Below are positions 1,382-28,616 of a stretch of 37,692 nt of DNA, piece by piece. Source of the stretch: Candidatus Shapirobacteria bacterium CG2_30_35_20 (lineage in GTDB: Bacteria; Patescibacteriota; Microgenomatia; UBA12405). The position numbers and the translations under genes were made by a program. Within the stretch, counting starts at the first letter, position 1; the number at the start of each line of letters is the position of its first letter. The notes beneath the pieces are model-generated. The model was given only the letters and a program-made list of their open reading frames with translations, had not been told where the DNA came from and made no database searches. The stretch lies in NCBI GenBank assembly GCA_001873665.1, contig MNZO01000020.1:1-37692 (forward strand), read 5' to 3'.

Positions 1382-1384
1382 ACT

Positions 1385-2008: not shown

Positions 2009-2015
2009 TTCTCCT

Positions 2016-9023: not shown

Positions 9024-9556
9024 AACAAACCACCTACGCTTTTATTGATAGTCAAAATTTGAACCTAGGTACTGGCAACGATTTATATCGAAACAACAAA
9101 TTGATATATAAGGGTTGGAAATTAGATTATCAAAAATTTTTTATATTTCTAAAAGATAAATATAGAATCTCACGGGCCATTTTATTTATTGGATATATTA
9201 AAGAAAATGAAAATCTATATAAAAAACTTAAGAGTTTTGGTTATGAAATAATTTTTAAGCCTACAGTTACCGATAAAAACGGTAAGACAAAAGGTAATGT
9301 TGATGCTGAGTTAATTCTTCACTCAGCTGCCAAACTTATAGATAAATACAATAAGGCTATTATCGTATCGGGAGATGGTGATTTTTATTGTTTATATGAA
9401 TATCTAGAAGAAAAAAATAAATTAGAATCGATAATAATCCCCAACAGAAAATCTGCATCATCTCTTCTAAAAAAGTTTGAAAAATATAAATTATTAATCG
9501 AAACAAAAAAGTTAAAATTAAAATTTAGACAAAAAAATAAGGGGCGTAGCGCATAG
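9020..9556 (+). CDS. NYN-domain (PIN-like, LabA-type) putative ribonuclease
   Basis: AFIDSQNLNLG near the N-terminus, KGNVDAELIL, and AIIVSGDGDFYCL, which together match the NYN acidic-residue pattern. ATGA overlap with the upstream GT2. Confidence 0.7.
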   Translation: MKQTTYAFIDSQNLNLGTGNDLYRNNKLIYKGWKLDYQKFFIFLKDKYRISRAILFIGYIKENENLYKKLKSFGYEIIFKPTVTDKNGKTKGNVDAELILHSAAKLIDKYNKAIIVSGDGDFYCLYEYLEEKNKLESIIIPNRKSASSLLKKFEKYKLLIETKKLKLKFRQKNKGRSA

Positions 9557-9609
9557 ATACTTAATCTATGAGTCGTGTCCCTATCGTGATTAAGATAATT
9601 ATACAAAAA

Positions 9610-10737: not shown

Positions 10738-10740
10738 TCA

Positions 10741-10788
10741 TTTTAAATTAAAAATTGATTAAAAATTTAAAATTAAAAATTAAAAATT
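10741..10788 (+). repeat. Family A repeat, intergenic copy that also forms the 5' end of a GT4 gene
   Basis: aaaattgattaaaaatttaaaattaaaaatt is nearly identical to 33334-33364 upstream of ileS. Confidence 0.75.
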
Positions 10789-11846
10789 CCCCTCGTATTG
10801 CTATCTATTACGATTGGTTAAATCAATGGGGTGGTGCTGAAAAAGTTTTATTAAACATCATAAAAATATTTCCCAATGCAGAACTTTTTACGTTATTTTA
10901 TGATAAAAATAAGTGTGATTGGTTACCCAAAAACATTAAAATCCACACCAGTTTTTTACAAAATTTACCCCAAACAAACTTTCTCACCCCCATTTACGAT
11001 ATGGCTGCCGAAAGTTTTGACTTTAAAAATTTTGATATCGTCATTTCCACAACCAGTAACGTCGGACATTGTTTACTCACTAGCCCCAATACTTTATTCG
11101 TTTGTTATTACCACAATTTAAACAGATATGTTTACATTCAACCACCCAAATTATTAATTCCACTTTTAAACATTTACAAAACAATCGATAAAATTTTAGC
11201 CAAACGACCCGATGCTACACTTTGTAATTCTTTTACTACTCAACAACGATTACTTTCTAATTTAAATATAAATTCAAAAATTATCAACCCTGGTATTGAT
11301 ACAAAATATTTTATTCCCATAAAAAACCCCACTAATGACTACTTTTTAGTTGTCGGACGACTAGTACCCCACAAAAGTGTCGATTATGTTGTTAAAACAT
11401 TTTTAACTTTAAAACAAAAGTTAATCATTGTTGGTTCTGGGCGTGACCAAAATAAATTAAAAAAAATAGCAAAAAATGCCAAAAATATTTTTTTTCTAGG
11501 TCAAGTAAACAATAACAAGTTATTATCCCTCTATCAAAATTGTTCCGCACTAATTTGCCCACAGATTGAAGATTTTGGAATCATTTCACTTGAAGCCCAA
11601 AGTTGCGGACGTCCAATAATATATTTTAATACCGGCGGAATTACTGAAACAAATATAGAAAACAAAACTGGAATTAGTTTTAACCGTCAAAATAAACAAT
11701 CGCTTTGTAATGCAATAAATAAATTTACCAAAACAAAATTTGACAACAAATTTATCAGTCAACACGCCAAAACATTTGACGAATCTATCTTCATGCTAAA
11801 CTTTAAAGAAGCAATAAATAAATTATGGAAGAACAAATCTTTGTAA
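10755..11846 (+). CDS. Glycosyltransferase, GT4 family
   Basis: N-terminal RIAIYYDWLNQWGGAEKV and C-terminal EDFGIISLEAQSCGRPIIY motifs. The only canonical start upstream of the conserved N-terminus is TTG 10755 (in-frame stop at 10749-10751). Confidence 0.8.
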   Translation: MIKNLKLKIKNSPRIAIYYDWLNQWGGAEKVLLNIIKIFPNAELFTLFYDKNKCDWLPKNIKIHTSFLQNLPQTNFLTPIYDMAAESFDFKNFDIVISTTSNVGHCLLTSPNTLFVCYYHNLNRYVYIQPPKLLIPLLNIYKTIDKILAKRPDATLCNSFTTQQRLLSNLNINSKIINPGIDTKYFIPIKNPTNDYFLVVGRLVPHKSVDYVVKTFLTLKQKLIIVGSGRDQNKLKKIAKNAKNIFFLGQVNNNKLLSLYQNCSALICPQIEDFGIISLEAQSCGRPIIYFNTGGITETNIENKTGISFNRQNKQSLCNAINKFTKTKFDNKFISQHAKTFDESIFMLNFKEAINKLWKNKSL

Positions 11847-12829
11847 TCCTCTGCGGTGGTACCGGTCCCCGACTGTGGCCTCTATCTACCACTTCCCACC
11901 CTAAACAACTATTACCCATACTGTCCGACAAAAGCCTTCTTGAACAAACCATCAGTCGGCTTACCAAAGTCACCAATTCTAAAAACATTTTTATTACCGC
12001 CAGCAATCGGAATATTAATCAAATAACCAAAATTGCCAAAAAATTTATTTCATTAGACCATATTTTTATCGAACCTGACAAAAAAAATACCGCCATGGCT
12101 ATTTATTTCACCCTATCTCAGTTCTCAAATTTAGATCCAGACACAGTGGTCTCTTTTCTCCCTTCCGATCATTTTATAACCCCAATCAATAAGTTCAAAA
12201 GCGATCTCCAAAAAGTCAGCCAAATTGCGGTGGATAATAAATCAATTGTCACCATTGGTATTCATCCCACCTCGCCCAATCCTTCATTTGGTTATATTTT
12301 AAAAAATAAAAAATTTGTCGAAAAACCCAATAAAATTCAAGCCCTAAAACATATTATAAATGGCGCCCTATGGAATTCAGGAATTTATACTGCCACTATC
12401 GGCACTTTTTTATCAGAATTTATTAAATATTTTCCCAAACCAAATTATCAAAAATCAAAACCTCTTTCTTTTGATAAAGCTATATCCGAAAAAACCAAAA
12501 ATATTGACTTCATCAAAGCCTCTTTTGATTGGAGTGATGTTGGTGAGTGGGGATCAATTTATAATAAATCAAAACCAGACTTGCAACATTTGACTATCGT
12601 CAACTCTCAAACAAAATATCTATCACAAAACAGCCACCATTGCTTAATTTCATCTGAGAATCCCAACAAATTAATTGGTCTAGTTGCTGTCAGTAACCTG
12701 GCTATTATCGATACTCCAAATGCTTTATTAATCTCCACTCTCGATCAAAGTTCACAAGTCCGCGATTTAATTATCAAAATTGTCAATAATCCAAAATTAA
12801 AACATTATTTTGTCGACGATGAAAAATAA
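11825..12829 (+). CDS. Sugar-1-phosphate nucleotidyltransferase, mannose-1-phosphate guanylyltransferase-like
   Basis: N-terminal ILCGGTGPRLWPLS nucleotide-binding motif and 334-aa length. Confidence 0.75.
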   Translation: MEEQIFVILCGGTGPRLWPLSTTSHPKQLLPILSDKSLLEQTISRLTKVTNSKNIFITASNRNINQITKIAKKFISLDHIFIEPDKKNTAMAIYFTLSQFSNLDPDTVVSFLPSDHFITPINKFKSDLQKVSQIAVDNKSIVTIGIHPTSPNPSFGYILKNKKFVEKPNKIQALKHIINGALWNSGIYTATIGTFLSEFIKYFPKPNYQKSKPLSFDKAISEKTKNIDFIKASFDWSDVGEWGSIYNKSKPDLQHLTIVNSQTKYLSQNSHHCLISSENPNKLIGLVAVSNLAIIDTPNALLISTLDQSSQVRDLIIKIVNNPKLKHYFVDDEK

Positions 12830-13481
12830 AATTATTCTTTATGATTTTCGAGTTGCCATTTTTCCCCTCGTCAAACGACTAATCGATATAATCAGTTCAC
12901 TACTTTTGCTCATTATTTTTTCCCCCATATTGATTATTGTTTCGGCAATTATAAAACTAACTTCTACTGGCCCAGTTATTTTCAAACAAAAACGAGTTGG
13001 TAAAAATGGTTTATTTTATATGTACAAATTTCGTTCTATGAGAATTGGTGATAATGACAAATTTTTGAAAGAGAAATATCCTGATTTGTGGATAAAATAC
13101 AAAAATAATGATTGGAAGCTATCTGTCAATGAAGACCCCCGAATTACCACTATTGGCAAAATAGTTCGTCAAACATCAATTGATGAAATGCCCCAATTTA
13201 TAAATGTTTTACGTGGTGAAATGAGCTTAGTTGGCCCTCGAGCGTATCGCAACGAAGAATTAAACGAATATGCCACAAAATACCCCAATACTCAAAAATA
13301 TATCGCCAATATTCGTTCTATCAAACCAGGAATTACCGGACCATGGCAAGTTTCTGGCCGGAACAATCTATCTTTTGAAAAAAGATCCAAACTTGATTCT
13401 GACTATGCCAACAACCGTTCAATATTAAACGAAATTATCATTATCATCAAAACTCCATTTGCTATGTTTTCTAATTGGTAA
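12819..13481 (+). CDS. Priming sugar-phosphate transferase (bacterial sugar transferase family, WbaP/EpsL-like)
   Basis: One N-terminal TM segment, then DEMPQFINVLRGEMSLVGPRA and PGITGPWQVSGRN motifs. I prefer ATG 12819 over the track's TTG 12810. Confidence 0.9.
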   Translation: MKNKIILYDFRVAIFPLVKRLIDIISSLLLLIIFSPILIIVSAIIKLTSTGPVIFKQKRVGKNGLFYMYKFRSMRIGDNDKFLKEKYPDLWIKYKNNDWKLSVNEDPRITTIGKIVRQTSIDEMPQFINVLRGEMSLVGPRAYRNEELNEYATKYPNTQKYIANIRSIKPGITGPWQVSGRNNLSFEKRSKLDSDYANNRSILNEIIIIIKTPFAMFSNW

Positions 13482-13497
13482 TTTGCTACAATATTTT

Positions 13498-15444
13498 ATG
13501 GAAATACCACAAGAGATAAATCAAAACCCTGTTATTAAACCCAATAAGTTAAAAATTACTAGCAACAAGAAACTGCGATTGATTTTGATTGTTTTTGGCA
13601 TAATTGTTGGCATTATAATTTTGCTCTCAACCATAACTTACGTTTTTGCCTATTTACCAGCTCAAAAACTATCAAATCAAATAAATCTCACCAAGATTGA
13701 AGCCGAAAAACTTAAACAAAACATTTCCGACAAAGATATCGCTAGTGCCAAAAATCAATTGATTACCATCCAGAGTAACCTTGACAAAGTATCGCAAAAT
13801 CTTTCAACATTTTCTTATTTTAATTACTTACCTTATTTAAAAAATTATTATCAAGATAGTCAAAGAATGGTTAAAATTGCCAACAATGGAGTCGAGATTG
13901 GAAACACCCTTATTAAGGCCATTGAACCATATCAAGATTTTCTCGGGCTAAAAGGTGCCGCCACCTCTAGTGCCAAAACCACCGAAGACAGGATTGCTTT
14001 TTTGACTCAATCTATTGAAAGTATTTTGCCCCATTTGGACTTAATTGAAACCAAAATTAAGGAAATCGATAAACTGCTTTCACAAATCGACATCACTAAA
14101 TATCCCGAAACTTACCAAAACTATAATCTCAAAAACATCTACAATCAATCCCGACAAGTAATTAGTAAAACCCAAAAACTCGTCTCCGATGGTCGACCAA
14201 TTCTCACCAAAAGTTCTTGGCTTCTTGGCAAAGATAAACCCCGCAATTACCTAGTTATTTTTCAAAATGACGGCGAGCTTCGCCCCAGTGGAGGTTTTTG
14301 GACTGCCTACGCCACGATTAAAATTGACAAAGGCAAGGTAATCCCCGGACCAGCCAGCAATATTTACGATCTTGATGATGCAATTTCCAGTACCACTCCC
14401 GCACCTCGAATTATTAAGTCGTACCATATCAATGTCCCCTACCTAAATCTTCGGGACAATAATTTATCTCCCGATTTTCCCACTGATGCCCAAATATTTT
14501 TAGATACCTTTTACAAAGCTACCAAGGGAAAAACTTCCTACGATGCTGTTATTGCCCTCGATACCAATGTTCTAGTTGATATGGTCACCATCCTGGGTAA
14601 ATTAGATACTCGTGTTGGCACGTTTACTACCAAACCCGACAAACGCTGTGACGGCTGTCCTAAAATTATTTATGATTTGGAATGGATTTCTGGACGCCCC
14701 AGAAATTTCATTGAAAAAAACCGCAAAGATTTTCTCGCCCCATTAATGTCAGCGCTTCTTAACAACGCCATGGGTGCCGGCAAAGATTATTTGCCAAAAC
14801 TAGGACAAGCATTTTTTACCAATATTTTTGAAAAACATATTCTGTTTTATTTTCCCGACTCCGATATGCAAAAAGCCGCCAACATGGCCAATATCTCAGG
14901 CAGTATCACCCAAACACCTCCCGAAATTGACTATCTCCATTTAAATGATGCTAATTTTGCCTCTGCTAAAAGCAATATTTTTATTACCCAAAAAATTAAA
15001 CACGAAATATCGGTTGCCAACAATAAAATAGAACATAAATTTGCCATTACTTACACCAACCCCTCCAAGGCTTCCAACTGCAATTTAGAAAAGGGGGATT
15101 TATGTCTCAATGCTGCCAAATATCGAAATTTGTTCAGATTGTATACCCCAATCGGTAGCAAATTAATCAAAATGACTGGCTCCGAAGTCGAACCAGTTCT
15201 TTACCAAGAGTTAGGCAAACAAGTTTTTGAAGGTTTTTATGGTGACAAATATCCACTTTATCCAGTATCGAGCAATAAAGTTACCATTCAATATCAAACT
15301 AGTGTTACCCCTCACAAAAACTACAATTTATTACTCCAAAAACAGCCAGGAACTAAGGCTATCCCCTACGAAATTTTTCTCAATGGTAAACTCATTGAGA
15401 CTTTTTCCTGGACAGGTGATAAAAATATAAAATTATCTCTGTGA
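13498..15444 (+). CDS. DUF4012-like envelope protein (N-terminal TM anchor)
   Basis: YLVIFQNDGELRPSGGFWTAYATIKI matches the DUF4012 core as I recall it. It has an N-terminal TM and coiled-coil region. ATG 13498. Confidence 0.65.
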   Translation: MEIPQEINQNPVIKPNKLKITSNKKLRLILIVFGIIVGIIILLSTITYVFAYLPAQKLSNQINLTKIEAEKLKQNISDKDIASAKNQLITIQSNLDKVSQNLSTFSYFNYLPYLKNYYQDSQRMVKIANNGVEIGNTLIKAIEPYQDFLGLKGAATSSAKTTEDRIAFLTQSIESILPHLDLIETKIKEIDKLLSQIDITKYPETYQNYNLKNIYNQSRQVISKTQKLVSDGRPILTKSSWLLGKDKPRNYLVIFQNDGELRPSGGFWTAYATIKIDKGKVIPGPASNIYDLDDAISSTTPAPRIIKSYHINVPYLNLRDNNLSPDFPTDAQIFLDTFYKATKGKTSYDAVIALDTNVLVDMVTILGKLDTRVGTFTTKPDKRCDGCPKIIYDLEWISGRPRNFIEKNRKDFLAPLMSALLNNAMGAGKDYLPKLGQAFFTNIFEKHILFYFPDSDMQKAANMANISGSITQTPPEIDYLHLNDANFASAKSNIFITQKIKHEISVANNKIEHKFAITYTNPSKASNCNLEKGDLCLNAAKYRNLFRLYTPIGSKLIKMTGSEVEPVLYQELGKQVFEGFYGDKYPLYPVSSNKVTIQYQTSVTPHKNYNLLLQKQPGTKAIPYEIFLNGKLIETFSWTGDKNIKLSL

Positions 15445-17893: not shown

Positions 17894-18742
17894 GTGAAAT
17901 ACCATATTCCAGTATTGTTGTCTGAAGTAATCACTCGATTTAATCCACAGCCAGGAAATATATATATTGATAGCACTGTTGGTCACGGTGGCCATAGTCA
18001 AGAACTACTAAGTAAAGGGGCTATCGTCTATGGTATCGACGCTGATAAAAATAATTTAACAATTACTACCGATAGAATAAATAACCCAAATTTTCACCCA
18101 ATTTTAGGTAATTTTAAAGACATAAAAAAAATCTGGCAAAAATATATCAACGCTCCCGTCGACGGTATTCTCGCTGATTTAGGGCTTAGCAATAATCAAC
18201 AAAGTCAAGAAGGTAGGGGGTTTTCCTTTAACGATAGTCAATCTCTTGATATGCGTCTTGACCCTAATACCCAAGAAACTTCTGCCAAAGATATCATTAA
18301 TAGTTATGACGAAACTCAACTATATTTACTATTTTCCAAAATCGCTCAAGAACAATTTGCCCTCCCCCTAGCCCAAAAAATTATCACCTCTCGACAACAA
18401 TCAACCATTAAAACCGGAAAGCAACTAGCCGATATTATTCATGAGTATTATCAATCAAGACATATTCGAAAAGCGATTGACCCCGCCACCAAAATTTTTA
18501 TGGCTCTACGCATCGAAACCAATAATGAATTTGAAAATCTAAATATCTTTCTTAATGACAGTCAAAAAATAATTAAAACAAACGGAATTATTGCCATTAT
18601 TTCTTTTCACTCGAGCGAAGACCGAATTGTTAAAAATTTTATTAAAAAAAATAATTTTACGACCATTCGTTTTTTGCCAACCAAAGATGAAATAAAAACT
18701 AACCATCTCTCCCGCTCCGCCGTTCTTAGAGTTTACAGCTAA
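17894..18742 (+). CDS. rsmH: 16S rRNA (cytosine1402-N4)-methyltransferase RsmH/MraW
   Basis: YHIPVLL start, DSTVGHGGHS and ADLGLS motifs. It is the first gene of the dcw cluster. GTG start. Confidence 0.9.
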   Translation: MKYHIPVLLSEVITRFNPQPGNIYIDSTVGHGGHSQELLSKGAIVYGIDADKNNLTITTDRINNPNFHPILGNFKDIKKIWQKYINAPVDGILADLGLSNNQQSQEGRGFSFNDSQSLDMRLDPNTQETSAKDIINSYDETQLYLLFSKIAQEQFALPLAQKIITSRQQSTIKTGKQLADIIHEYYQSRHIRKAIDPATKIFMALRIETNNEFENLNIFLNDSQKIIKTNGIIAIISFHSSEDRIVKNFIKKNNFTTIRFLPTKDEIKTNHLSRSAVLRVYS

Positions 18743-19083: not shown

Positions 19084-19281
19084 ATGCCCAACCGAATTTT
19101 ACTCACCGTCACCCTTAGCCTGTTTTTTTTTCAATTAGCATTTTCGATAATCTATTCCAATATTATCATCAAAATAAACCAAACGTTTTTTGAAAAAAAC
19201 AAAGTTTACACCAATTTATCATCAGTTAATCAGAATTTAGAACTCCAATATGTCCAAAAATACGCCATCAACCAACAATAA
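19084..19281 (+). CDS. FtsL-like small bitopic membrane protein
   Basis: 65 aa with one TM segment plus a short coiled-coil tail. It sits between rsmH and ftsI and overlaps the ftsI start. Confidence 0.45.
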   Translation: MPNRILLTVTLSLFFFQLAFSIIYSNIIIKINQTFFEKNKVYTNLSSVNQNLELQYVQKYAINQQ

Positions 19282-20836
19282 TCGACTCAAAGCTGTCAAT
19301 CTGACAATCATCTTTGCCTTTACCATCGTCATGGCGCGACTTTTTTACTGGCAAATAATTATGGGTCCCACCATTCGGGCCGATAACATATCCCAAAATT
19401 CAAAACTACAAAAAATTCTCCCTAAAACTGGCAAGATTTTATCATCAGACAATTTTCCCTTAAGTCTTGGCGTAAAAGCCTATAAACTATCAATTTATAA
19501 ACCAAATTTAAAAATAAACTTAAATGAATTATTCAAAAAAATCGACAAAATAAAACCCAATACCATTCTCAACAACAACATTCAAATTAATAATCTCAAC
19601 AATCCTCAGATCAAATGGGTCACCCTCAATGGTACGTTTGACCAAATTCAAAAACAACAACTAACAATCCCTGGAATCGAATTTGAAGAAAGTAGTTTTC
19701 GCTATTACCCCGAAGGTAATTTGGCCAAAAACATCATCACCAATTTAGAATCGTTTTATCGTCGAATCCTATTTGGAAAAACTGGTTTTTCACTTTCATC
19801 TATTGATGGTACTGGTCAAACCATATTAACCAAACGAAACTGGCGTCAATCAGAAACCGACGGTCAAGATATTAAAACTAGTTTAAACCGCCAAGTACAG
19901 ATAATTTTGACCGACACTCTCACAAAAGGTCTTGAGATTTATCAGGCCAAAAGTGCTTCAGGCACAATTATTGACCCAAGTACAGGTCTCATAATTGCTA
20001 TGTCCTCAATCCAGTCTGACACCACCCCCAATAATAATATTGACAATATTAGTAATTTGTTTGAACCGGGATCTATATTCAAACCACTAGTTGTCGCTAT
20101 GGCTCTCGACAGTAAAAAAATTGATACCGATTTTATTTGTTCTGATTGTTCAAAACCTCGAGTTTTGGGCCAATACACCATTAATAATTGGGATAATACC
20201 TTTCACCCCAATTCAACCCTAAGTGACATTATTAAAAACTCAGATAATATTGGAATGAGCAATATTATTCAAAGACTAGATAAAGATAATTTTATAAAAT
20301 ACTTTCACGCCCTTAAACTCGACTCAAAAAGCGAAATCGACTTAATCGGCGAATCGATTTCTCCCCCCAAAAAATTCATAGCCGATATTGATTTGGCCAC
20401 CGCCTCTTTTGGTCAGGGACTAGCCGTCAATGAATTACAAATGGTTCAAGCCTTTAACACCCTGGCCAATCAGGGCAAATTAATCTCTGGCCATTTCAAC
20501 ACCCAAATATTACCCAGCCCTATAAATGTTTTTTCACCAGAAACCGTAATAAAAGTTATTGATATCCTAAAATATGCCGTAGAAAACAGCGCCATCAAAT
20601 CCCTAAAACCAAAAAATCTCGAAGTTTGTGCTAAAAGTGGTACTGCCCAAATCGCCATTGGAGGTCAATACAGTGACACCAACACTATTGGTTCATATGT
20701 TGGCTTTTCCCCCTGTACATCACCCAAATTTACCATGATTATCACTATTAACCAACCCCAAAAGGGGGAGTGGGGTTCATCCACCGCCGCCCCCCTCTGG
20801 TTTGAAATTGCCACAAAAATCTCCCCTTTGTTATAA
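19250..20836 (+). CDS. ftsI: Class B penicillin-binding protein / peptidoglycan D,D-transpeptidase FtsI
   Basis: N-terminal TM segment, then SxxK (GSIFKP), SxN (NSDNIG) and K[ST]G (AKSGTA) motifs. Confidence 0.85.
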   Translation: MSKNTPSTNNNRLKAVNLTIIFAFTIVMARLFYWQIIMGPTIRADNISQNSKLQKILPKTGKILSSDNFPLSLGVKAYKLSIYKPNLKINLNELFKKIDKIKPNTILNNNIQINNLNNPQIKWVTLNGTFDQIQKQQLTIPGIEFEESSFRYYPEGNLAKNIITNLESFYRRILFGKTGFSLSSIDGTGQTILTKRNWRQSETDGQDIKTSLNRQVQIILTDTLTKGLEIYQAKSASGTIIDPSTGLIIAMSSIQSDTTPNNNIDNISNLFEPGSIFKPLVVAMALDSKKIDTDFICSDCSKPRVLGQYTINNWDNTFHPNSTLSDIIKNSDNIGMSNIIQRLDKDNFIKYFHALKLDSKSEIDLIGESISPPKKFIADIDLATASFGQGLAVNELQMVQAFNTLANQGKLISGHFNTQILPSPINVFSPETVIKVIDILKYAVENSAIKSLKPKNLEVCAKSGTAQIAIGGQYSDTNTIGSYVGFSPCTSPKFTMIITINQPQKGEWGSSTAAPLWFEIATKISPLL

Positions 20837-20848: not shown

Positions 20849-22117
20849 ATGTATAAAAAAATATATAAGATTTGTTTTCAAAAAATTAAAAATATATTCT
20901 GGCACCTTCCCAAAAGTATTTTTTACAATATCTATTTCGGTTTCCCTCATCGTAATCTTACCTTAATTGGTGTTACAGGAACCGACGGCAAAACCACCTC
21001 TGTCAACCTAATTCACCAAGCATTACTTAATGCCAATATAAAATCAGGTCTAATTTCTACCCTCGGTGCCAAAATAGGTGACCAAAGCATCTCTATTGGC
21101 TTACACACCACCTCTCCCGATTCATCTATTGTTCAAAAAATATTTGCCCAAATGGTCACCGAGGGTATGACTCACGCCATTGTTGAAGTCACTGCTCATG
21201 CTATCGATCAATATCGTTATTTCGGTTGTAATTTTGCCATTTGCGGTATAACTAACACCTCCCACGAACATCTCGATGATTTTTTAAATATGTCATCATA
21301 TATCAACACCAAAGCAAAACTTTTTTCCAATTCCAATATTGCCATATTAAACAAAGACGATTCCTCATTTTCTCAAATTATTGTCCCACCCACCACTAAA
21401 ATCTTTTCCTACAGCATTGACAAAAAATCCGATTATCAAGCCAAAAACATTAATTTAAATAACAAATTTCTTGAGTTTACCGTCAACAAAACGACATACA
21501 AAACTAATAGTAACTACCGCTACCAAATTTATAATATTCTCTTAGTCCATTCAATTTTAAATCAACTTAAAATCGACCCAAATTTATTGCCCAAATTAAT
21601 ACTAAATTTTCCTGAAATAAAAGGCCGTCGAGAAATTGTTAAAAACAATCTCCACATCCAATGTATTGTTGATTTTGCCCACACCCCCAACGCCTTATTC
21701 CAAACCCTATCATCTTTACACTCAACAACTAAAAACAAATTGATATGCATTTTTGGTGCCACTGGTGGTCGCGACCAGACCAAACGCCCACTTATGGGTA
21801 AAGTTGTTTCCCAAAATTGTGACATCGCTATTGTTACCGCCGATGATACTCGTAATGAAAATATCATCGAAATAAACAAACAAATCATTTCCGGTTTTGA
21901 TCAAAAACAAATTGACAACAAAAAATTTGCTTATTACAACATCCCCAATCGCCAAGATGCTTTCAACCTAGCCGTTAGTTTGGCGAAATCAGGCGATACA
22001 ATTATTGCCTGTGGTAAAGGTCATGAAACCTCAATTCTCCACGGTAAAACCGAATACCCCTGGTCAGAAAGTGATGCCTTTAAAACCGCTTTTAGAAATA
22101 AAGACCAAAATGTTTAA
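20849..22117 (+). CDS. murE: Mur ligase, MurE-like (UDP-MurNAc-L-Ala-D-Glu: diamino acid ligase), short N-terminus
   Basis: GVTGTDGKTTS P-loop, EVTAHAIDQ and NTSHEHLD motifs. C-terminal TADDTRNE lies where MurE has DNPR. Confidence 0.7.
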   Translation: MYKKIYKICFQKIKNIFWHLPKSIFYNIYFGFPHRNLTLIGVTGTDGKTTSVNLIHQALLNANIKSGLISTLGAKIGDQSISIGLHTTSPDSSIVQKIFAQMVTEGMTHAIVEVTAHAIDQYRYFGCNFAICGITNTSHEHLDDFLNMSSYINTKAKLFSNSNIAILNKDDSSFSQIIVPPTTKIFSYSIDKKSDYQAKNINLNNKFLEFTVNKTTYKTNSNYRYQIYNILLVHSILNQLKIDPNLLPKLILNFPEIKGRREIVKNNLHIQCIVDFAHTPNALFQTLSSLHSTTKNKLICIFGATGGRDQTKRPLMGKVVSQNCDIAIVTADDTRNENIIEINKQIISGFDQKQIDNKKFAYYNIPNRQDAFNLAVSLAKSGDTIIACGKGHETSILHGKTEYPWSESDAFKTAFRNKDQNV

Positions 22118-22706
22118 CCAACAAACTCAAAACACTATTAAAGAAAACTATAATCACGGTCTTTTACCACAAAGAAATAATAAAGATTACTGGTACTCCG
22201 ACAGTTCTAGTCGTTCCAACTTATCCAAATTTAACTTATCCTCCGAAAATCGCCGAATTATCAGCAAAACTAACCATTATAAATATCAGGTAATCCCCTT
22301 ATCCCAATTTAAATATTCCCTCTTTATTCAAAAAACAATTTTTAAATGGATTAAAGAAATTGGGTGGAATTTCCCTATCTCCTCGGTCAAAACCATTTTT
22401 ACTAATCATATTTTTAATTACGTCTACGTTTGGCAAGATTTAGATGGTAACGTCGTGGCTTATTCTATTTGCTACTTTTCAAAAAATATTTCTCATATCG
22501 CCTATGTCTTTTACAATCCAAAATTATCTCATAATAATTTGCCAATCAGACTAACTCTACAAACTATTATTGATAGCCATGATAAAAATTTAAATTATTG
22601 TTATCTTGGTCGTTTTAATCCAAAAACAAAACTGGGTTATTATAAACGTGAGCTTCCAGGCTTTGAATATTATAAAAATAATAATTGGATAAAATACACT
22701 CTATGA
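22110..22706 (+). CDS. ATE/Bpt-family (arginyl/leucyl-tRNA--protein transferase-like) acyltransferase homolog
   Basis: SRSNLSKFNLSSENRRIISK, GNVVAYSICYF..ISHIAYVFYNP and NYCYLGRFNPKTKLGYYKRELPGFEYYKNNNW match the ATE_C/Bpt pattern (SavYtFydP ... YLGYwi..MsYKarfrP.E...W). ATG 22110 overlaps the murE stop, and its stop overlaps the next ATG. Confidence 0.6.
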   Translation: MFNQQTQNTIKENYNHGLLPQRNNKDYWYSDSSSRSNLSKFNLSSENRRIISKTNHYKYQVIPLSQFKYSLFIQKTIFKWIKEIGWNFPISSVKTIFTNHIFNYVYVWQDLDGNVVAYSICYFSKNISHIAYVFYNPKLSHNNLPIRLTLQTIIDSHDKNLNYCYLGRFNPKTKLGYYKRELPGFEYYKNNNWIKYTL

Positions 22707-23980
22707 ATATACATATTTTAGGTATTTGTGGCAAAATGACCGCCCCTCTCGCCATTGCTCTAAAAAAACAAGGTCATTTTATTTCAGGTTCTGATCAAGA
22801 CAAAATTTACCCTCCATTTTCTACCACTTTATCCCAGGCTAAAATACCAGTCAACAAACTTCACCCAAAACCAAATTTATATATCATTGGCTCAGCTTTT
22901 AAAAATCAAAACAAATTGAACACCGAATTTGAATCAATTAAAAAGTCAAATATTCCCTATATTTCCGCCACCAAATATATTGCCAAACATTTAATTAAAC
23001 CAAACAGTATTTTAGTTGCCGGTAGTTATGGCAAAAGTTCAATTTCTGCTATGTTGGCCTTTATTTTAAAAGATTCCAAACATAATCCCTCGTATTTATT
23101 TGCTGCCGAATCTTTAAACAAATTTCCCTCACTTTCTTTTACCGACAGTGATTGGTCAATTTGTGAAGCCGATGAATCCATCAATGGATTAGATACTCAA
23201 GCCAAATTTTTATATTACCCGATCAAATATTTAATTTTGACCAGTGCTCAATGGGAACACAAAGAATCATATAAAACCGAGCTGGACAATTTTAACGCCT
23301 TTAAAAAACTGATTATCAATATCCCCAAAGACGGATTACTCATCTACAATCAGCTCGATACATCAATCAACCCACTATTAAAATTTACCAAATGTCAGGC
23401 AATTCCTTATACTATAAATAAAATTAATCATCCCTTCCTGTTTGGGGCAGCCTTTACTAATAACTTTGCCGCCGTTAAAATTTTATGTGATTATCTTAAA
23501 ATATCAACAAAAAAAATATTAGAATACAAAGGGTTAAAAAATAGATTAGAAATAGTTGCTAATAAAAAAAATATTATTTTTATCGATGATTTTGCTCAAT
23601 CTGCTCCACGTATTCAAGCCTCAATTTCTGCAATAAAAAACAAATATCCAAAACGACCAGTAAAAGTAATTCTCGAACCACACGCTAGTTTTTTACAATA
23701 TAAAAGCTCTATAACAGAGTTATTTGAACCATTAATTAATGTTTCACAAATATTCTTAACAAAAATTTCCTTTTCTAAAAACAAAGACAAAACCACTCGT
23801 ATTAGTTTTGCTGACTATAAAACCATTTTTGGTGATAAGATTAATTATCTGCCCATTAATTCTGACCTCATTACTACCGTAATTTCATCACTTAAACCCA
23901 ACGACATTTTAATTCGCTTTTCTTCTGGTGGTTTAGATGGCCAAAAATCTTTTCATAAAATCATTAATTTCAAAACATAA
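22703..23980 (+). CDS. Mur ligase of the MurC/Mpl type
   Basis: The N-terminus IHILGICGKMTAPLAIALKKQGHFISGSDQDKIYPPFST resembles the Mpl/MurC Rossmann N-domain. P-loop is AGSYGKSS. Confidence 0.75.
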   Translation: MNIHILGICGKMTAPLAIALKKQGHFISGSDQDKIYPPFSTTLSQAKIPVNKLHPKPNLYIIGSAFKNQNKLNTEFESIKKSNIPYISATKYIAKHLIKPNSILVAGSYGKSSISAMLAFILKDSKHNPSYLFAAESLNKFPSLSFTDSDWSICEADESINGLDTQAKFLYYPIKYLILTSAQWEHKESYKTELDNFNAFKKLIINIPKDGLLIYNQLDTSINPLLKFTKCQAIPYTINKINHPFLFGAAFTNNFAAVKILCDYLKISTKKILEYKGLKNRLEIVANKKNIIFIDDFAQSAPRIQASISAIKNKYPKRPVKVILEPHASFLQYKSSITELFEPLINVSQIFLTKISFSKNKDKTTRISFADYKTIFGDKINYLPINSDLITTVISSLKPNDILIRFSSGGLDGQKSFHKIINFKT

Positions 23981-23982
23981 TT

Positions 23983-25017
23983 ATGATCCATCTATATTTA
24001 GGATTATTGTTATTTTCTTTTATAGTCACCAGTATTTTAGTTGTACCTTTTATTAACCTACTTTATCGATTAAAATTTCAACGTCAGAGTCAAAAAACAC
24101 TTGATGTTCAAAACAATCATACTCCTATATTTGACAAATTTCACAACCCCAAGGCCGGTACCCCTGTCGGTGGGGGACTATTAATCATAATTTCAGTTTC
24201 TCTTCTTTTTGCTAGTTTACTACCCATATTACAATTTTCCAAAATTTTTATCTCCAGTAACTATAAATTAAATCTAGAACTGGAGGTAATCTTTTTTACC
24301 TTTATTAGTTTTGGCCTACTCGGTCTTTATGATGATATTCTCAAATTTTTTAATTTTCAAAAAAGTGGATTTTTTGGATTAAGATTAAAACATAAGTTAA
24401 TTCTCCAATTACTTGCCTCTGGATTTATATCTTTATTAATTTATTTTCGACTTGGTACTGATTTCATCTATATTCCATTTCTGGGAGCCGTTAAATTAGG
24501 GATTTTATTTGTGCCTATTTCCACTTTAATCATCGCCACCTTTGCCAATTTTTTTAATATTACCGATGGTCTTGATGGTCTATCTTGCGGAATTTTAGTA
24601 ATATCTCTTTTTGCTTTTTGGATTTTAGCTGGCTCGTCTCTTGACACCCCCGTTTCCCTATTTATTTCCCTTTGGATTGGGGCATTAATTGCCTTTTTAT
24701 ATTTTAACGTCTATCCAGCTCGTTTATGGCTAGGCGACGTTGGTTCGATGTCATTTGGTGCCACCATTGCCGTCATCGCCGTCTTGTTGGGTAAAATTAT
24801 TCCACTATTCGTTGTTGGTCTACCATTCATCGTTGAAGGAGTTAGCAGTGGTTTACAAATATTATCAAAAATTTATTTTAAAAAGAAACTTTTTCCCGCC
24901 GCCCCCATCCACCTCACCTTACAAAAAGCTGGTTGGGAGGAACCAAAAATTGTTTTTAGAGCTTGGCTAGCCACTATGATATTAGCTATTTTTGCACTAT
25001 GGTTAGGAATAAACTAA
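23983..25017 (+). CDS. mraY: Phospho-N-acetylmuramoyl-pentapeptide transferase MraY
   Basis: Polytopic protein with NITDGLDGL, GDVGSMSFG and APIHLTLQKAGW motifs. Confidence 0.9.
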   Translation: MIHLYLGLLLFSFIVTSILVVPFINLLYRLKFQRQSQKTLDVQNNHTPIFDKFHNPKAGTPVGGGLLIIISVSLLFASLLPILQFSKIFISSNYKLNLELEVIFFTFISFGLLGLYDDILKFFNFQKSGFFGLRLKHKLILQLLASGFISLLIYFRLGTDFIYIPFLGAVKLGILFVPISTLIIATFANFFNITDGLDGLSCGILVISLFAFWILAGSSLDTPVSLFISLWIGALIAFLYFNVYPARLWLGDVGSMSFGATIAVIAVLLGKIIPLFVVGLPFIVEGVSSGLQILSKIYFKKKLFPAAPIHLTLQKAGWEEPKIVFRAWLATMILAIFALWLGIN

Positions 25018-25520
25018 ACGAATATTTAGGTATTCCCTATTTTTCCAATGTTGGCAAACATAAAGTAATGTCTCGAAATAATGCCCTAGTTGGAAAGGGA
25101 ACCGCCAAAGAAATTGCTCTCCAAACTATCGAGTTTGCCAATCAACAAAATATTAAATTATTAGACCTAACTCCAACCCAAATTTATAATTTTCAAAAGA
25201 AAAACCATTTAGGAATAGATTGTTCCGGTTTGGTTTGCCACCTATTAGGTTTAAAAGTTGACGTCCGTAAAATATCTGCCAACATGCTTACATCTCTCCC
25301 AATTTCCAAACAAATTAAAACTTTAAAATCAAATGATCTAATTCGCCAAAAAAACGGCCACCATGTTTTATTAGTTTTGTCGGTCGACAAAGATTTAGTT
25401 ACATATGTTCACTCATCACTGTCAAAACATGGTGTCATTATTGAAACAAAAAATATCAAAGACATCCCCAATGACAGTTTCTGGCGAGTTACTTCTCTTC
25501 CACCAAAATCTGGTACTTAA
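24999..25520 (+). CDS. NlpC/P60 (C40) family cysteine peptidase-like protein
   Basis: GIDCSGLVCHLL (catalytic Cys context), GHHVLLV and VHSS. The start is uncertain: ATG 24999 or 25068, and the track gives TTG 24963. Confidence 0.6.
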   Translation: MVRNKLNEYLGIPYFSNVGKHKVMSRNNALVGKGTAKEIALQTIEFANQQNIKLLDLTPTQIYNFQKKNHLGIDCSGLVCHLLGLKVDVRKISANMLTSLPISKQIKTLKSNDLIRQKNGHHVLLVLSVDKDLVTYVHSSLSKHGVIIETKNIKDIPNDSFWRVTSLPPKSGT

Positions 25521-25656
25521 GGGGGGATAGCGATAGCACTTCCACCTCAGTCCCACATTCTTGACATTCAAGAATATCACCCACAGCTGAGGTATTTTCA
25601 CCTTTAATTTCTGTCCCACAATCAGGACACATGATTTTTTGGTCTGTTTGCTTCAT
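25489..25656 (-). CDS. LysW-like zinc-ribbon protein (amino-group carrier protein-like)
   Basis: MCPDCGTEI...GDILECQECGTEVEVLSLSPL...VEEK parallels the LysW pattern CPxCGxE...GE..xCxxCGxELEV..LDPL + acidic tail. Alternative starts are at 25677 and 25632. Confidence 0.5.
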   Translation of the reverse strand: MKQTDQKIMCPDCGTEIKGENTSAVGDILECQECGTEVEVLSLSPLKYQILVEEK

Positions 25657-25670
25657 AATATATCTATTAT

Positions 25671-26471
25671 ATGACACCTTTAATCAAAATAGGAGACGTC
25701 TATTTAAAACGCGAAGACCAAAACCTCACTGGTAGCGCCAAAGATCGTAGTTTAGAATTACAAATCAAAAATTTAGTAAAAAATAATTATTTGTCTGCAG
25801 TTATATCATCCACTGGTAACGCTGCCATTTCTGCCCAATATTTCTGTCATAAACATGGTATTAACTTAACCGTTTTTGTTTCCCCTCATGCTGACAAATC
25901 AAAACTAAAATTAATTGCCAATTATATAATCAGCAATCGACCCATTTCCGATGCCTTTAAATATGCCAAAAAAAATAAATCATATTTACTTCGCCAATCC
26001 ACCGACCCAACTGCTCTCCGGGGATATAGTCAAATAACCACAGAAATTATTAAACAATGCCCCAATGTTTCATCAATTTTTGTCCCCGTTGGCAGTGGCA
26101 CTACCCTTCTGGGAATCGCTTCAAAATTACCAAACGTAATTCCTATATTTGGGGTACAGCCTGCCTCACATTGCCCCATAGCATCCGTTTTTGATCACGA
26201 TTTTATCCCCGAAAACACCACTATTACCGACGCTCTCAGCGTCAAACTTTTACCCCTAAAGAACAGAGTTATCAAATCTATTACCAATCATTCAGGTCAA
26301 GGAATTGTAGTTCAAAATAAACAAGTCCTACACTCGCAACAATTATTAAAATCAAACAACATTTTTACTTCATCCGAAGGCGCCTTGGCTTTGGCTGGAC
26401 TTAACAAAATAAAATCTCAAATAAATATTGGTAATTTTCCTGTCATTATTTTAACTGGCACCAAAAGATGA
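25671..26471 (+). CDS. PLP-dependent enzyme, fold type II (threonine synthase / cysteine synthase / Ser-Thr dehydratase-racemase superfamily), short (266 aa)
   Basis: LKREDQNLTGSAKDR carries the Schiff-base lysine motif. There is also an STGNAAIS segment and a VGSGTTLLG glycine loop. Confidence 0.75.
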   Translation: MTPLIKIGDVYLKREDQNLTGSAKDRSLELQIKNLVKNNYLSAVISSTGNAAISAQYFCHKHGINLTVFVSPHADKSKLKLIANYIISNRPISDAFKYAKKNKSYLLRQSTDPTALRGYSQITTEIIKQCPNVSSIFVPVGSGTTLLGIASKLPNVIPIFGVQPASHCPIASVFDHDFIPENTTITDALSVKLLPLKNRVIKSITNHSGQGIVVQNKQVLHSQQLLKSNNIFTSSEGALALAGLNKIKSQINIGNFPVIILTGTKR

Positions 26472-27523
26472 ACACAGAACAACTAATTAATAGTTTACCT
26501 GTCGATTTTTTCTTTTTGGTTGTCGACCAAAATCTTGATATCAAATTGCCACAACTAAAAAACTTCTACTCAATTTATAACCCAAATTTATCACAAAAAA
26601 ATAGTGGTTATTTATTATCTCAACCATCAACCACAAATTTTATCAAAAAAACCACTAAAAAATCGGGGCATCAGGCCGCCATTGTCCCCTTTAAACCATC
26701 GGCTAAAATCGACTTAATTTGCAAACAAAATAATTGGCTGCGTATCAGCAATCCAGCCCCTTTAAACCGTCTTTTAGAAGACAAAATCAAATTTCCTAGC
26801 ATTATTAAAAATATTCCCCAATTACCTTTTACCATTGCCCCTTATACCAAGCAAAATGTCGATAAATTAATAAAAAAATATACCAACATAGTTGCCCAAA
26901 CTCATTTCGGCTGGGCTGGTAATAGCACCAAATTAATCACCAAGTACGACCCAACCATTATTCCTCCAAACTCCATATGTAAATTTACTCCCCATCTAAG
27001 GGGTTATTCGCTATTAAACAATTGTTGTTTAACCACAAACGGACTCATTCAAAGTCCTCCAGCCCTCCAATTTACCGGTCTACCCCAATACACCACCAAC
27101 CCTTTTGCCACTGTTGGTCGTCAATGGCCATCAATGGCACCTCAAAAAATTATTAATCAAGTTAAAAATATCACTACTGATTTTGCCAAAATATTAATAA
27201 AAATAAAATATAAAGGTTTTTTTGGACTTGATTTTTTTATCACTCAAAACAAGGTGTACTTACTCGAATGTAACCCTCGCCTAACTGCCTCTTTTGCTTT
27301 TTATACCAATATTGAAATAAAAGCTAAAATCACTCCGCTTTTTTATTATCACCTTTTAGAATTCACAAATCCTACCGTCCCCCCCAAAGAAAATCGCTTT
27401 AATAATAAACAAATTATTGGTTCAGAATTAACAAAACGTGATGAAAGTGGTGTCATTATTAAAAAAATCAATGACTATAAAATATTTTCAAACACTTATA
27501 ATAAAATAAAACTCAATGTCTAA
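26468..27523 (+). CDS. ATP-grasp family ligase, non-canonical
   Basis: LEDKIKF entry motif and C-terminal YKGFFGLDFFITQNKVYLLECNPRLTASF (Mg/ATP-binding E-x-N). ATGA overlap with the PLP gene. Confidence 0.65.
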   Translation: MNTEQLINSLPVDFFFLVVDQNLDIKLPQLKNFYSIYNPNLSQKNSGYLLSQPSTTNFIKKTTKKSGHQAAIVPFKPSAKIDLICKQNNWLRISNPAPLNRLLEDKIKFPSIIKNIPQLPFTIAPYTKQNVDKLIKKYTNIVAQTHFGWAGNSTKLITKYDPTIIPPNSICKFTPHLRGYSLLNNCCLTTNGLIQSPPALQFTGLPQYTTNPFATVGRQWPSMAPQKIINQVKNITTDFAKILIKIKYKGFFGLDFFITQNKVYLLECNPRLTASFAFYTNIEIKAKITPLFYYHLLEFTNPTVPPKENRFNNKQIIGSELTKRDESGVIIKKINDYKIFSNTYNKIKLNV

Positions 27524-28616
27524 AACTTGGCAATATTCTCTATTACTGACCATCATTGGTTTATTTTTCATCTCAATTTCCTCCCTTTTTGAAGCTCAAA
27601 AAAGTCTCGGCGATCCTAATTTTTTTATCAAAAAACAAATTATCTGGATTGCTTTGGGTGTTACTGCCATGTTTATTACTTCAAAAATAAATCTTGATTT
27701 CCTCCGTCGTCATTCTTTCTCTCTGTACGTAATCTCAATTTTACTCCTAATCATTGTTTTTATCCCCAGTCTTGGTCAAAAAACTTTTGGAGCCAGCCGC
27801 TGGATTGATCTTGGTTTCCTCAATTTTCAACCATCTGAATTTTTTAAGTTAATTACCATAATTTTTTTCCCCGCCCTATTTACCAGTCAAGACAAAACTA
27901 GCTTCAAACATTTGCTTATTTTTTTACTTCCGGCTTTTGGATTAATTGTTTTAGAGCCAAACCTAAGTACTGCTCTCTTATGTGCCGCCATTATCATTTC
28001 CACCTATTATTTGTCCGGCGGTCAATTATTGCCAATTTTTATTTCATTTTTGATTTTTTCATTACTGGGAATTGGACTTATTTTTTCCTCGGATTATCGT
28101 AAAGCTCGATTTAATACCCTCGCCAACATTCAGCAAAACAGTAATCTAAATTACCACAGCCAACAAATAATTATTTCTTTGGCCTCAGGGGGATTATCGG
28201 GCAGAGGAATTGCCAACTCTGAACAAAAATACAAATTCTTGCCCAAAATTAGCACTGATTCCATTTTAGCTATAATTGGTGAAGAAACTGGGCTTATTGG
28301 CCTTTTGGCCCTAAGTTATTTATTTATATCTTTTATTACCTATTTGTTTAAATTAGCCAACATGGTTACTTTGTTATTTGAAAAAGTATTAATCTCCTCT
28401 TTTGCTTGCTGGTTATCATATCAAGCTCTCATCAATTTTTCCGCTATTGTTGCTCTAATTCCCTTAACTGGAATTCCTTTTCCTTTTATTTCCTATGGCG
28501 GATCATCACTCCTCTCAATTATGGCTGCTGCTGGACTAGTAGCCAACATTGAGCGAAAATATAGACATGACAAAAAAAATCCTAATCACTGGTACTCACC
28601 TCACTCCCGCCATTGA
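27516..28616 (+). CDS. ftsW: SEDS-family peptidoglycan glycosyltransferase FtsW
   Basis: PKISTDSILAIIGEETG and PLTGIPFPFISYGGSS motifs. It sits upstream of murG in the dcw cluster. Confidence 0.85.
   Translation: MSKTWQYSLLLTIIGLFFISISSLFEAQKSLGDPNFFIKKQIIWIALGVTAMFITSKINLDFLRRHSFSLYVISILLLIIVFIPSLGQKTFGASRWIDLGFLNFQPSEFFKLITIIFFPALFTSQDKTSFKHLLIFLLPAFGLIVLEPNLSTALLCAAIIISTYYLSGGQLLPIFISFLIFSLLGIGLIFSSDYRKARFNTLANIQQNSNLNYHSQQIIISLASGGLSGRGIANSEQKYKFLPKISTDSILAIIGEETGLIGLLALSYLFISFITYLFKLANMVTLLFEKVLISSFACWLSYQALINFSAIVALIPLTGIPFPFISYGGSSLLSIMAAAGLVANIERKYRHDKKNPNHWYSPHSRH

Follow-up and report, generated by a model that had tools for sequence, protein, structure and literature searches.

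What stands in the place of murD in a division and cell-wall (dcw) cluster from which that gene is missing? The question is raised by contig MNZO01000020.1 of Candidatus Shapirobacteria bacterium CG2_30_35_20 (assembly GCA_001873665.1), a Microgenomates member of the candidate phyla radiation (CPR). Positions 1 to 37,692 of its forward strand were analysed, and this whole stretch of 37,692 nucleotides is referred to here as the window. It is AT-rich (GC ~0.34) and holds a dcw cluster, and its genes have their nearest homologs in metagenome-assembled genomes of Candidatus Shapirobacteria and Woesebacteria. Since murD of Escherichia coli is located between mraY and ftsW, the genes found between mraY (23983-25017, plus strand; PF00953, 102 bits) and ftsW (27516-28616, plus strand; PF01098, 284 bits) of the window occupy the murD slot, as a first-pass annotation made from the sequence had claimed. 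Four non-canonical genes lie there, encoding a putative NlpC/P60-like cysteine peptidase (24963-25520, plus strand), a LysW-like zinc-ribbon protein (25489-25656, minus strand), a PALP-family enzyme of pyridoxal 5'-phosphate (PLP) fold type II (25671-26471, plus strand; 266 residues) and an ATP-grasp ligase (26468-27523, plus strand). The first-pass annotation had listed three of them, all of which are real, but had missed the NlpC/P60-like gene. The ATG of the zinc-ribbon gene (25656, minus strand) and the divergent PALP start are 14 bp apart, and the PALP stop and the ATP-grasp start share an ATGA overlap; this coupling, together with an ECNPRLT motif in the ligase, had been noticed in the first pass and was confirmed on reading the sequence again. 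It is probable that this four-gene module supplies or hands over the building block for the D-glutamate position of peptidoglycan by a carrier-protein route.

A small carrier-like protein with a conserved tail

The zinc-ribbon protein is 55 residues long when read from its likely ATG at 25656; its open reading frame (ORF) extends to a GTG at 25677, which would give 62 residues. It is a genuine LysW homolog, as had been proposed, scoring 41.3 bits on the Pfam family Zn_ribbon_LysW (PF21344; gathering score 27) and finding LysW of Thermus thermophilus as its top PDB match in a phmmer search (3wwl, E = 1.7e-8), in which 5k2m is matched as well (E = 9e-6). On TIGR01206 and NF041070 it stays below the cut-offs (41.6 bits against 53.2, and 29.2 against 75, respectively). 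The alignment to Thermus LysW covers residues 4-48 of 54, and the AEDWGE tail is absent, with ...LVEEK in its place; because the 3wwl match ends at residue 48 of 54, the protein is read as a true LysW homolog that lacks this tail. It is acidic, with 11 Asp/Glu against 5 Lys.

The EEK ending had entered the first-pass annotation as a mere caveat to the LysW comparison; it is instead the most conserved feature of the protein. The C-terminal residue is lysine in all 76 copies, and the last three residues are EEK in 73 of these, ETK in two and EQK in one; the stop codon and tail were read directly from the DNA. Across 30 aligned homologs, the four cysteines (two CxxC pairs), the motif GDI.EC..CGTE.E and the terminal EEK are invariant, and the small protein is better conserved than its neighbours. 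The median dN/dS of its gene is ~0.09 over the last 30 codons, indicating strong purifying selection. The small protein is real and selected, and its exact C-terminus matters. When 1.84 billion cluster representatives were searched exhaustively with a profile, 814 LysW-like proteins were recovered. The best 150 of these include 105 short proteins, whose tails end in EEK in 44 cases (mostly ...EEEK), in E[TQ]K in four and in ...WGE in six. LysW-like proteins with an EE(E)K tail thus form a broad class. No LysW-like domain fused to an enzyme was found in the best 150 representatives, only multi-ribbon repeats, and a pattern scan for the EEEK tail in viral contigs gave 0 matches. Tandem zinc-ribbon proteins with two or three LysW-like domains exist (P0314, P0346 and several representatives of 120-210 residues), some of them ending in ...EEEK, and many other single-domain LysW relatives carry long poly-acidic tails that end in W, D or E rather than in EDWGE.

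The orthologs with an EEK tail that are publicly annotated (P0250, P0262, P0268, P0275, P0281 and P0307) bear the names 'lysine biosynthesis protein LysW' or 'alpha-aminoadipate carrier protein LysW' at NCBI and JGI, and orthologs of the PALP enzyme are called 'threonine dehydratase/synthase' or 'PLP-dependent lyase/thiolase'. These LysW names, and a Pfam LysW domain above threshold, are what speaks for an ordinary LysW or ArgW serving lysine or arginine biosynthesis. Against this, the protein lies under the TIGR01206 cut-off and has no EDWGE tail with a terminal glutamate, lysX, lysZ, lysY, lysJ and lysK are absent within 10 kb in all ~170 loci, and the partner ATP-grasp protein stands outside the RimK/LysX family. 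Set beside LysW on four points, the small protein fails on three of them (equivalog score, tail, and partner genes with their neighbourhood). The ordinary reading, to which next to no probability attaches, is effectively refuted, and the public LysW and 'threonine dehydratase/synthase' names are probably misannotations.

The PLP enzyme, the ATP-grasp ligase and the cysteine peptidase

The PALP protein was correctly described in the first pass as a fold-type II PLP enzyme with an LTGSAKDR motif; it scores 134 bits on PF00291 and contains NLTGSAKDR. Its best NCBIfam matches are archaeal-type ThrC models, on which it reaches 84.6 bits at most against cut-offs of 358-421; a longer homolog from another module-bearing lineage (locus L134) attains 172 bits on a ThrC model with a cut-off of 358. 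The window protein scores 24.8 bits on TIGR00260 (cut-off 167), and models of the SbnA family and CysK also match the PALP family (TIGR03945, 50-63 bits). An AlphaFold2 (AF2) model with a predicted local distance difference test score (pLDDT) of 92 resembles TdcB, ThrC, serine racemase and a PLP-dependent aspartate racemase in Foldseek (template modelling score, TM, 0.81-0.87). K24 (the PLP lysine), S46-S47-x-G49-N50 and S142 are kept in at least 95% of 66 homologs, and the motifs GSxKDR, SS[ST]GNA and SxEG run through the family; the Schiff-base lysine, the Ser/Thr-Gly-Asn loop and the phosphate-binding loop are all present. One site in the SSGN loop, which we take to be the place of the second catalytic base of serine racemase, is occupied by Ser in 56 and Thr in 10 of the 66 sequences. 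At the position equivalent by eye to the Arg of the ThrC NPxR motif, which presumably binds the phosphate of O-phosphohomoserine, the same sequences have Ala (34) or Gly (32). Sequence, profile and fold searches against the PDB cannot tell ThrC, dehydratase and racemase apart for this enzyme.

The ATP-grasp protein exceeds the threshold of PF02655 (25 bits against 23.2). Its nearest relative by sequence is NF005096 (PRK06524), on which it scores 64.5 bits against a cut-off of 684; it scores 15.4 bits on the Ddl model TIGR01205 (cut-off 245.65). A BesA model gives a match of 30 bits in this ATP-grasp family, and the protein matches none of the RimK/LysX models of Pfam and NCBIfam. The AF2 model (pLDDT 93) is predicted to have a three-domain ATP-grasp fold, and Foldseek places it with PurK, biotin carboxylase and PurT (probability 1.0, TM ~0.6, identity 10-15%); LysX, RimK and Ddl are missing from the best 50 fold matches. 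Sequence and profile searches of the PDB recovered only the generic ExNPR core, matching CPS. The ExNxR Mg/ATP motif (E267, N269, R271) is kept in at least 95% of 51 homologs. Because only generic ATP-grasp relatives match, the substrate cannot be read from homology. Every NCBIfam score of the two enzymes is far below its cut-off: the ligase is not an ordinary Ddl, nor the PLP enzyme an ordinary ThrC or CysK. The first-pass annotation had named the opposite outcome as fatal to its interpretation. An analogue of the biotin carboxyl carrier, with an N-carboxylated terminal lysine, was also considered and set aside; only the fold ranking hints at it, and there is no carboxyltransferase partner.

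The product of the gene at 24963-25520 ('unk185', 185 residues; likely start Met ~24999) has no Pfam match when scanned alone, reaching 14.8 bits on PF00877 against a threshold of 23. That family is matched weakly by 19 of 20 members of the protein's own family (best E = 1.5e-5), and the best PDB matches of the family profile are Spr/MepS, aligned across the Cys and His motifs. The Cys of GIDCSG (G-x-D-C-S-G) and a downstream His, a dyad of the papain-like hydrolase kind, are kept in at least 95% of 47 homologs, metagenome lineages included. Homologs from outside the Shapirobacteria have no Pfam match when scanned alone; one of them (L095) reaches 49.8 bits on the MepS model, whose cut-off is 186. 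Judged by these motifs and profiles, the protein appears to be a divergent NlpC/P60-like cysteine peptidase and a fourth member of the module. It is presumably cytoplasmic, since no N-terminal hydrophobic segment or signal peptide is visible in its sequence.

Gene order among relatives of the window

An alignment of the ATP-grasp protein was scanned over one genome per GTDB species; 110 relatives were found, of which 80 loci were kept, and gene order was established by phmmer of the window proteins against six-frame ORFs. Every sufficiently long locus shows the same order, namely RsmH, FtsI, MurE, ATE_C-like, MurC-like, MraY, NlpC-like, LysW-like (minus strand), PALP, ATP-grasp, FtsW, MurG, FtsA, FtsZ, IleRS and RodA. 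The zinc-ribbon, PALP and ATP-grasp genes are co-located in all intact relatives among the 80 species genomes, so that the co-occurrence near mraY and ftsW on which the first-pass annotation had made its case depend is borne out, and the NlpC-like gene lies directly upstream of the carrier gene in all complete Shapirobacteria-type loci. The small gene is absent from eight loci, at a contig end or in a masked N run (L084). The two apparent exceptions, L084 without the small gene and L067 without PALP, contain masked N runs (100-127 bases), in which the seemingly absent genes are probably hidden. Given the same order in all intact loci and the dN/dS of ~0.09, the trio is not a chance arrangement. 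A RiPP (ribosomally synthesised and post-translationally modified peptide) or graspetide precursor was likewise dismissed as an identity for the small protein, which is conserved within the dcw cluster in the manner of a housekeeping gene.

Searches of the window, of ~20 kb of additional flanking DNA and of the 80 Shapirobacteria-type loci found neither a MurD nor a MurI homolog, and murD, murF, ddl and murI are all missing within the ~10 kb added on each side of the window. To take genes missing from the cluster as missing from the genome is nevertheless a weak step: Shapirobacteria clusters are also without murB, for which the trio offers no substitute, and because murB, murF and ddl too lie outside these clusters, a gene that the cluster lacks is not thereby lacking in the genome. 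The Shapirobacteria-type clusters (L005-L084) have lost murB, ddl, murF and mostly murA from the dcw cluster, although in some Shapirobacteria (L001, L085) murA is still in place, with the murC-like gene on one side and mraY on the other; other module-bearing lineages (L106, L120, L134, L153) keep all four genes in the cluster.

Occurrence in other lineages

Metagenome DNA was scanned with the pattern EC..C[GA].E.E-x12-EEEK-stop, which excludes the Shapirobacteria type. It gave 90 matches, 80 of them listed as loci; all 80 listed loci hold LysW-like ORFs, their EEEK ending being given by construction of the pattern. The lineages concerned have a CPR-like gene content (MraY, FtsW, Mur genes, small proteins). 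In these loci, which were found through the carrier tail only, PALP is the divergent neighbour of the carrier in 47 of 48 cases, the ATP-grasp gene comes next after PALP in 35 of 38, and an NlpC-like gene lies at most three genes upstream of the carrier in 27 of 48.

Two main architectures were seen. In the dcw-type loci (L106, L120, L134, L153), the order is FtsI, MurE, ATE_C-like, MurC, MurB, MurA, Ddl, MurF, MraY, NlpC-like, carrier (minus strand), PALP, ATP-grasp, FtsW and MurG. L134 illustrates how complete such a cluster can be: its MurC scores 245 bits (under the cut-off of 335.1), MurB 260 bits and MurA 446 bits, its Ddl is canonical, exceeding the TIGR01205 cut-off with 332 bits, and a MurF-like ligase reaches 260 bits on TIGR01143, short of the cut-off of 288.6. 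Among murC, murB, murA, ddl, murF and murD, murD is the sole absentee from the dcw-type loci, and the module stands in its place. In the second architecture, named 'PLEEEK' after the carrier tail, the order is NlpC-like, MurD-like, carrier (minus strand), PALP and ATP-grasp, and the block stands apart from mraY and ftsW. In this group the MurD-like gene scores 161-186 bits on TIGR01087. MurD also adjoins the carrier in L093 and L095, where it scores 253-258 bits, above the equivalog cut-off, and L144 has a C-terminal MurD fragment next to the carrier; altogether, MurD lies between the NlpC-like gene and the carrier, or beside the carrier, in the PLEEEK group and three other subgroups. The module is thus a transferable unit that flanks murD or stands in its place.

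When E. coli MurI, MurD, MurF and DdlB were used as queries against the 2.08 Mb of module-bearing DNA, DdlB found genes in ~9 module-bearing loci and MurF in ~20; no MurI homolog was found in these 2.08 Mb, which is weak negative evidence. For Ddl, MurF and MurD the comparison is informative. The murD-flanking and murD-slot pattern ties the module to the D-glutamate-adding step and excludes a replacement of Ddl or MurF. A replacement of Alr and Ddl by the pair of enzymes, among the options raised in the first pass, or a replacement of MurF, is contradicted as well by the related lineages that keep a canonical Ddl and a MurF-like ligase in the same cluster as the module.

A replacement of MurD itself has to be considered here. 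Where murD is absent, as in the window, the ATP-grasp protein might act in situ as a non-homologous MurD, joining glutamate to UDP-MurNAc-L-Ala, while the other proteins provide D-glutamate or process the product, so that MurI might be replaced as well. The dcw-type loci, which hold murA, murB, murC, murE, murF and ddl and lack murD alone, exactly at the module, are in keeping with this, as are the want of any MurD-like ORF in the window, the ~20 kb of extra flank and the 80 Shapirobacteria-type loci, and the acyl-phosphate chemistry that ATP-grasp enzymes and Mur ligases have in common. The same ATP-grasp gene, however, is found beside MurD in at least four other sub-lineages, two of them with MurD above the equivalog cut-off; because the adjacent MurD co-occurs with it there, its function in those sub-lineages is distinct from that of MurD. 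Shapirobacteria clusters, moreover, are also without murB, murF and ddl, so that these three must have their place in other parts of the genome. A replacement of MurD is therefore quite unlikely, and since the module flanks murD in several lineages, two with scores above cut-off, cooperation with MurD is favoured over replacement.

Two further observations concern these loci. A variant with the tail ...ILEEEK (L113, L123, L164, L094) has the order MurC-like, NlpC-like, carrier and PALP, followed by unrelated genes, with no adjacent ATP-grasp gene or mraY. In L095, a PRK09061-type amidohydrolase (5874-7448, 183 bits) lies directly upstream of the NlpC/P60 gene (7448-8140), MurD (8109-9578) and the carrier; we take PRK09061 to be a D-glutamate-deacylase-like family.

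A proposed route to D-glutamate

The homologies of the parts, the conserved catalytic residues and tail, the obligate co-location and the link to murD can be accommodated by the following route. The LysW-derived zinc-ribbon protein would be a carrier whose functional end is its C-terminal -Glu-Glu-Lys. The ATP-grasp ligase would use ATP to join the gamma-carboxylate of L-glutamate to the terminal lysine at its epsilon-amino group, a polarity opposite to that of LysW that would leave the alpha-amino group of the cargo free. This reverse polarity is proposed because PLP chemistry at C-alpha needs a free alpha-amine and because the tail ends in an amine (Lys) where LysW ends in a carboxylate (Glu). 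Glutamate is proposed as the cargo because MurD is the genomic partner; LysW and ArgW natively carry glutamate. The ThrC-like fold-type II enzyme would then epimerise the tethered glutamate at C-alpha, and the NlpC/P60-type peptidase would free D-glutamate from the carrier for use by MurD. Among ATP-grasp enzymes, PylC and the D-aspartate ligase Aslfm acylate the epsilon-amine of lysine, and NlpC/P60 enzymes typically cut gamma-D-Glu-diamino-acid bonds. The Ser/Thr at the base site of PALP, the Ala/Gly at the presumed site of the ThrC Arg and the amidohydrolase of L095 are consistent with this route, as is, more weakly, the lack of a MurI homolog in the 2.08 Mb of module-bearing DNA. A carrier-protein reading, already offered in the first-pass annotation, is still the best explanation of the module, with a cycle of loading, conversion and release that would deliver D-glutamate or an analogue to MurD; the specific version set out here, in which carrier-bound L-glutamate is converted to D-glutamate and the module serves as an ATP-driven glutamate racemase substitute feeding MurD, is put forward tentatively, with well under even confidence in covalent loading, cargo, racemisation and release taken together.

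Several considerations count against this version. The PALP enzyme scores best on ThrC models and not on racemases, and its modelled fold by itself does not tell whether the chemistry is that of a racemase, a dehydratase or a beta-replacement enzyme. The ligase is unrelated to LysX and RimK, which to our knowledge are the only ligases that load LysW, and the enzymes closest to it in fold (PurK, biotin carboxylase and PurT) use bicarbonate or formate. A Glu gamma-carboxylate or the alpha-carboxylate of the C-terminus would serve just as well as the point of attachment. The profile scores behind the NlpC/P60 assignment are weak, L113, L123 and L164 have no adjacent ATP-grasp gene, the adjacency to murD could be partly historical, and there is no evident need for a carrier in the racemisation of glutamate.

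A rival explanation dispenses with covalent carriage altogether. The PLP enzyme may racemise or otherwise make a free amino acid, which the ATP-grasp ligase would join into a dipeptide or add as a branch to the precursor, for example at the D-Glu alpha-carboxylate or the diamino acid; the NlpC/P60 protein would edit or recycle, and the zinc ribbon would be only a structural or regulatory subunit. Pairs of a racemase and an ATP-grasp ligase recur in peptidoglycan synthesis, and the known examples (Alr with Ddl, VanT with VanC and VanXY, aspartate racemase with Aslfm) share with the module a PLP gene coupled to an ATP-grasp gene in a cell-wall cluster, vanC operons also having a peptidase gene alongside. 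The translational coupling of PALP and ATP-grasp, the resemblance of the PALP fold to fold-II racemases, a ligase that is not LysX-like and a carrier gene on the opposite strand all fit such a set. These known pairs nevertheless differ from the module in that their PLP enzymes are of fold III and not fold II, neither enzyme is orthologous and no carrier-like protein is present. The small protein, furthermore, is a specific homolog of LysW, all characterised members of which are known as covalent carriers; the invariance of its exact C-terminal residue over very distant lineages is hard to explain for a structural subunit; and the canonical Ddl in the same clusters already covers D-Ala-D-Ala synthesis. 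A carrier-free set is rather doubtful, the probability given to it being about one chance among several.

A further rival is a carrier-tethered beta-replacement leading to a diamino-dicarboxylic acid for position 3, a surrogate of diaminopimelic acid (DAP) of the lanthionine, cystathionine or lysinoalanine type. The PLP enzyme would make an aminoacrylate from Ser, O-phospho-Ser or Cys, which would be attacked by the nucleophile of a tethered amino acid or by the terminal lysine. The KDR Schiff-base motif and the S-G-N loop are common to enzymes of the CysK, CBS and SbnA types, in line with the TIGR03945 scores of 50-63 bits, and CPR bacteria are generally without amino-acid biosynthesis. The MurE of the window carries ADDTRNE at the place corresponding to DNPR, presumably the motif of meso-DAP-adding MurE; its Arg would suggest a distal carboxylate on the position-3 residue. 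The genomic association, however, is with murD and not with murE, the SbnA and CysK scores are below the ThrC and dehydratase scores, and no epimerase or other partner gene is present, which makes beta-replacement improbable. The idea that the small protein sacrifices itself by donating the lysine at its C-terminus was discarded as implausible in an essential pathway, no regenerating enzyme being evident.

The racemisation route may be extended into a general claim, namely that EE(E)K-tailed LysW homologs are reverse-polarity 'carboxyl-group carriers', with an isopeptide bond to the terminal lysine, and that they form an ATP-driven L-to-D glutamate converter replacing glutamate racemase in a large fraction of CPR/Patescibacteria, while murD-less lineages might pass the residue straight into the precursor. 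In this full form the claim is speculative and, on balance, unlikely.

Comparison with known systems

The module resembles the LysW/ArgW systems (lysine and arginine biosynthesis in Thermus, Sulfolobus and Thermococcus; AmCP in Streptomyces) in having a zinc-ribbon domain in a small acidic protein, and in its genetic association with a ligase of the ATP-grasp type, a PLP enzyme and a hydrolase, which could follow the same logic of loading, modification and release. It differs from them in several ways. The tail ends in Lys (...EE(E)K) rather than in Glu (EDWGE); the ligase is not LysX/ArgX/RimK-like, and the LysZ/LysY kinase and reductase are absent; the PLP enzyme is a fold-II ThrC-like protein, whereas the LysW system has the aminotransferase LysJ; release would fall to a cysteine peptidase of the NlpC/P60 type in place of the metallopeptidase LysK; and the genomic context is dcw/murD of CPR bacteria rather than amino-acid biosynthesis.

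For an ATP-consuming supply of D-glutamate without MurI, encoded beside a murD-type gene, the closest known likeness is the MurD2-MurL route of Xanthomonas. In this route, reported by Feng and colleagues in 2017, L-glutamate is reportedly added first and then epimerised on the nucleotide precursor. The proteins are entirely different from those of the module, MurL does not belong to the PLP enzymes and no carrier takes part; the epimerisation takes place on the UDP-MurNAc-dipeptide, where PLP chemistry would be impossible. The proposed loading via an acyl phosphate has its precedent in PylC and Aslfm (N-epsilon acylation of lysine) and in BesA-type enzymes (gamma-glutamylation as a transient handle). 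The acceptors of these enzymes are free lysine or a nucleotide precursor and not a protein tail, and their similarity to the module's ligase is limited to the ATP-grasp core.

Other features of the window

Upstream of the module, the dcw cluster of the window comprises, all on the plus strand, rsmH (17894-18742), ftsI (19250-20836), murE (20849-22117), an ATE_C/arginyltransferase-like gene (22005-22706, probable start near 22113) and a divergent murC/mpl-like ligase gene (22685-23980); murG, ftsA and ftsZ follow downstream of ftsW on the same strand. The window MurE is short (422 residues) and without the usual N-terminal domain, since its alignment to the MurE models starts only at about position 73-94. 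Divergence is high in the murC/mpl-like ligase, which scores 152 bits on TIGR01082 over its N-terminal half only, and has a weak match to the MurD model over residues 243-321; the 245 bits of the L134 MurC extend along the full length of that protein. The ATE_C-like gene keeps this place, after murE and before the murC-like gene, in essentially all dcw clusters that bear the module, of the Shapirobacteria type and others. The L134 copy reaches 51 bits on arginyltransferase models. The gene is a candidate for a Fem-like, aminoacyl-tRNA-dependent transferase acting on the peptidoglycan precursor.

Farther upstream, a long glycosyltransferase or O-antigen-like cluster (18-15444) has embedded in it an AbiEii-type nucleotidyltransferase toxin gene (1385-2008) with a DUF6922 partner, an 88-residue ORF upstream that was seen in L086. 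An NYN-domain gene lies at 9020-9556. In L088 and L089, contigs that belong to the species of the window and have genes in common with it, a HicB/HicA toxin-antitoxin pair (5614-6107) lies between ftsZ and ileS.

Implications

LysW-type carriers are known to us only from lysine and arginine biosynthesis and from a few Streptomyces metabolites, and no description of the module was found in the literature on LysW, Microgenomates peptidoglycan, PRK06524, Shapirobacteria, CPR or pseudomurein. A class with an EEK tail in an essential cell-wall cluster would extend carrier-protein chemistry to the synthesis of peptidoglycan precursors, and reverse-polarity carrier chemistry, if true, would be categorically new. 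The work also corrects a probable systematic misannotation in public databases ('lysine biosynthesis protein LysW', 'threonine dehydratase/synthase'), and the compact system of four proteins is directly testable in vitro. CPR bacteria make up a very large, uncultured share of bacterial diversity, and the module would point to an undescribed way in which they make or deliver the residue at the D-glutamate position. Should it take the place of MurI or MurD, it would offer an essential target specific to its lineages, and it would help to explain how D-amino acids are supplied under the minimal metabolism of these bacteria.

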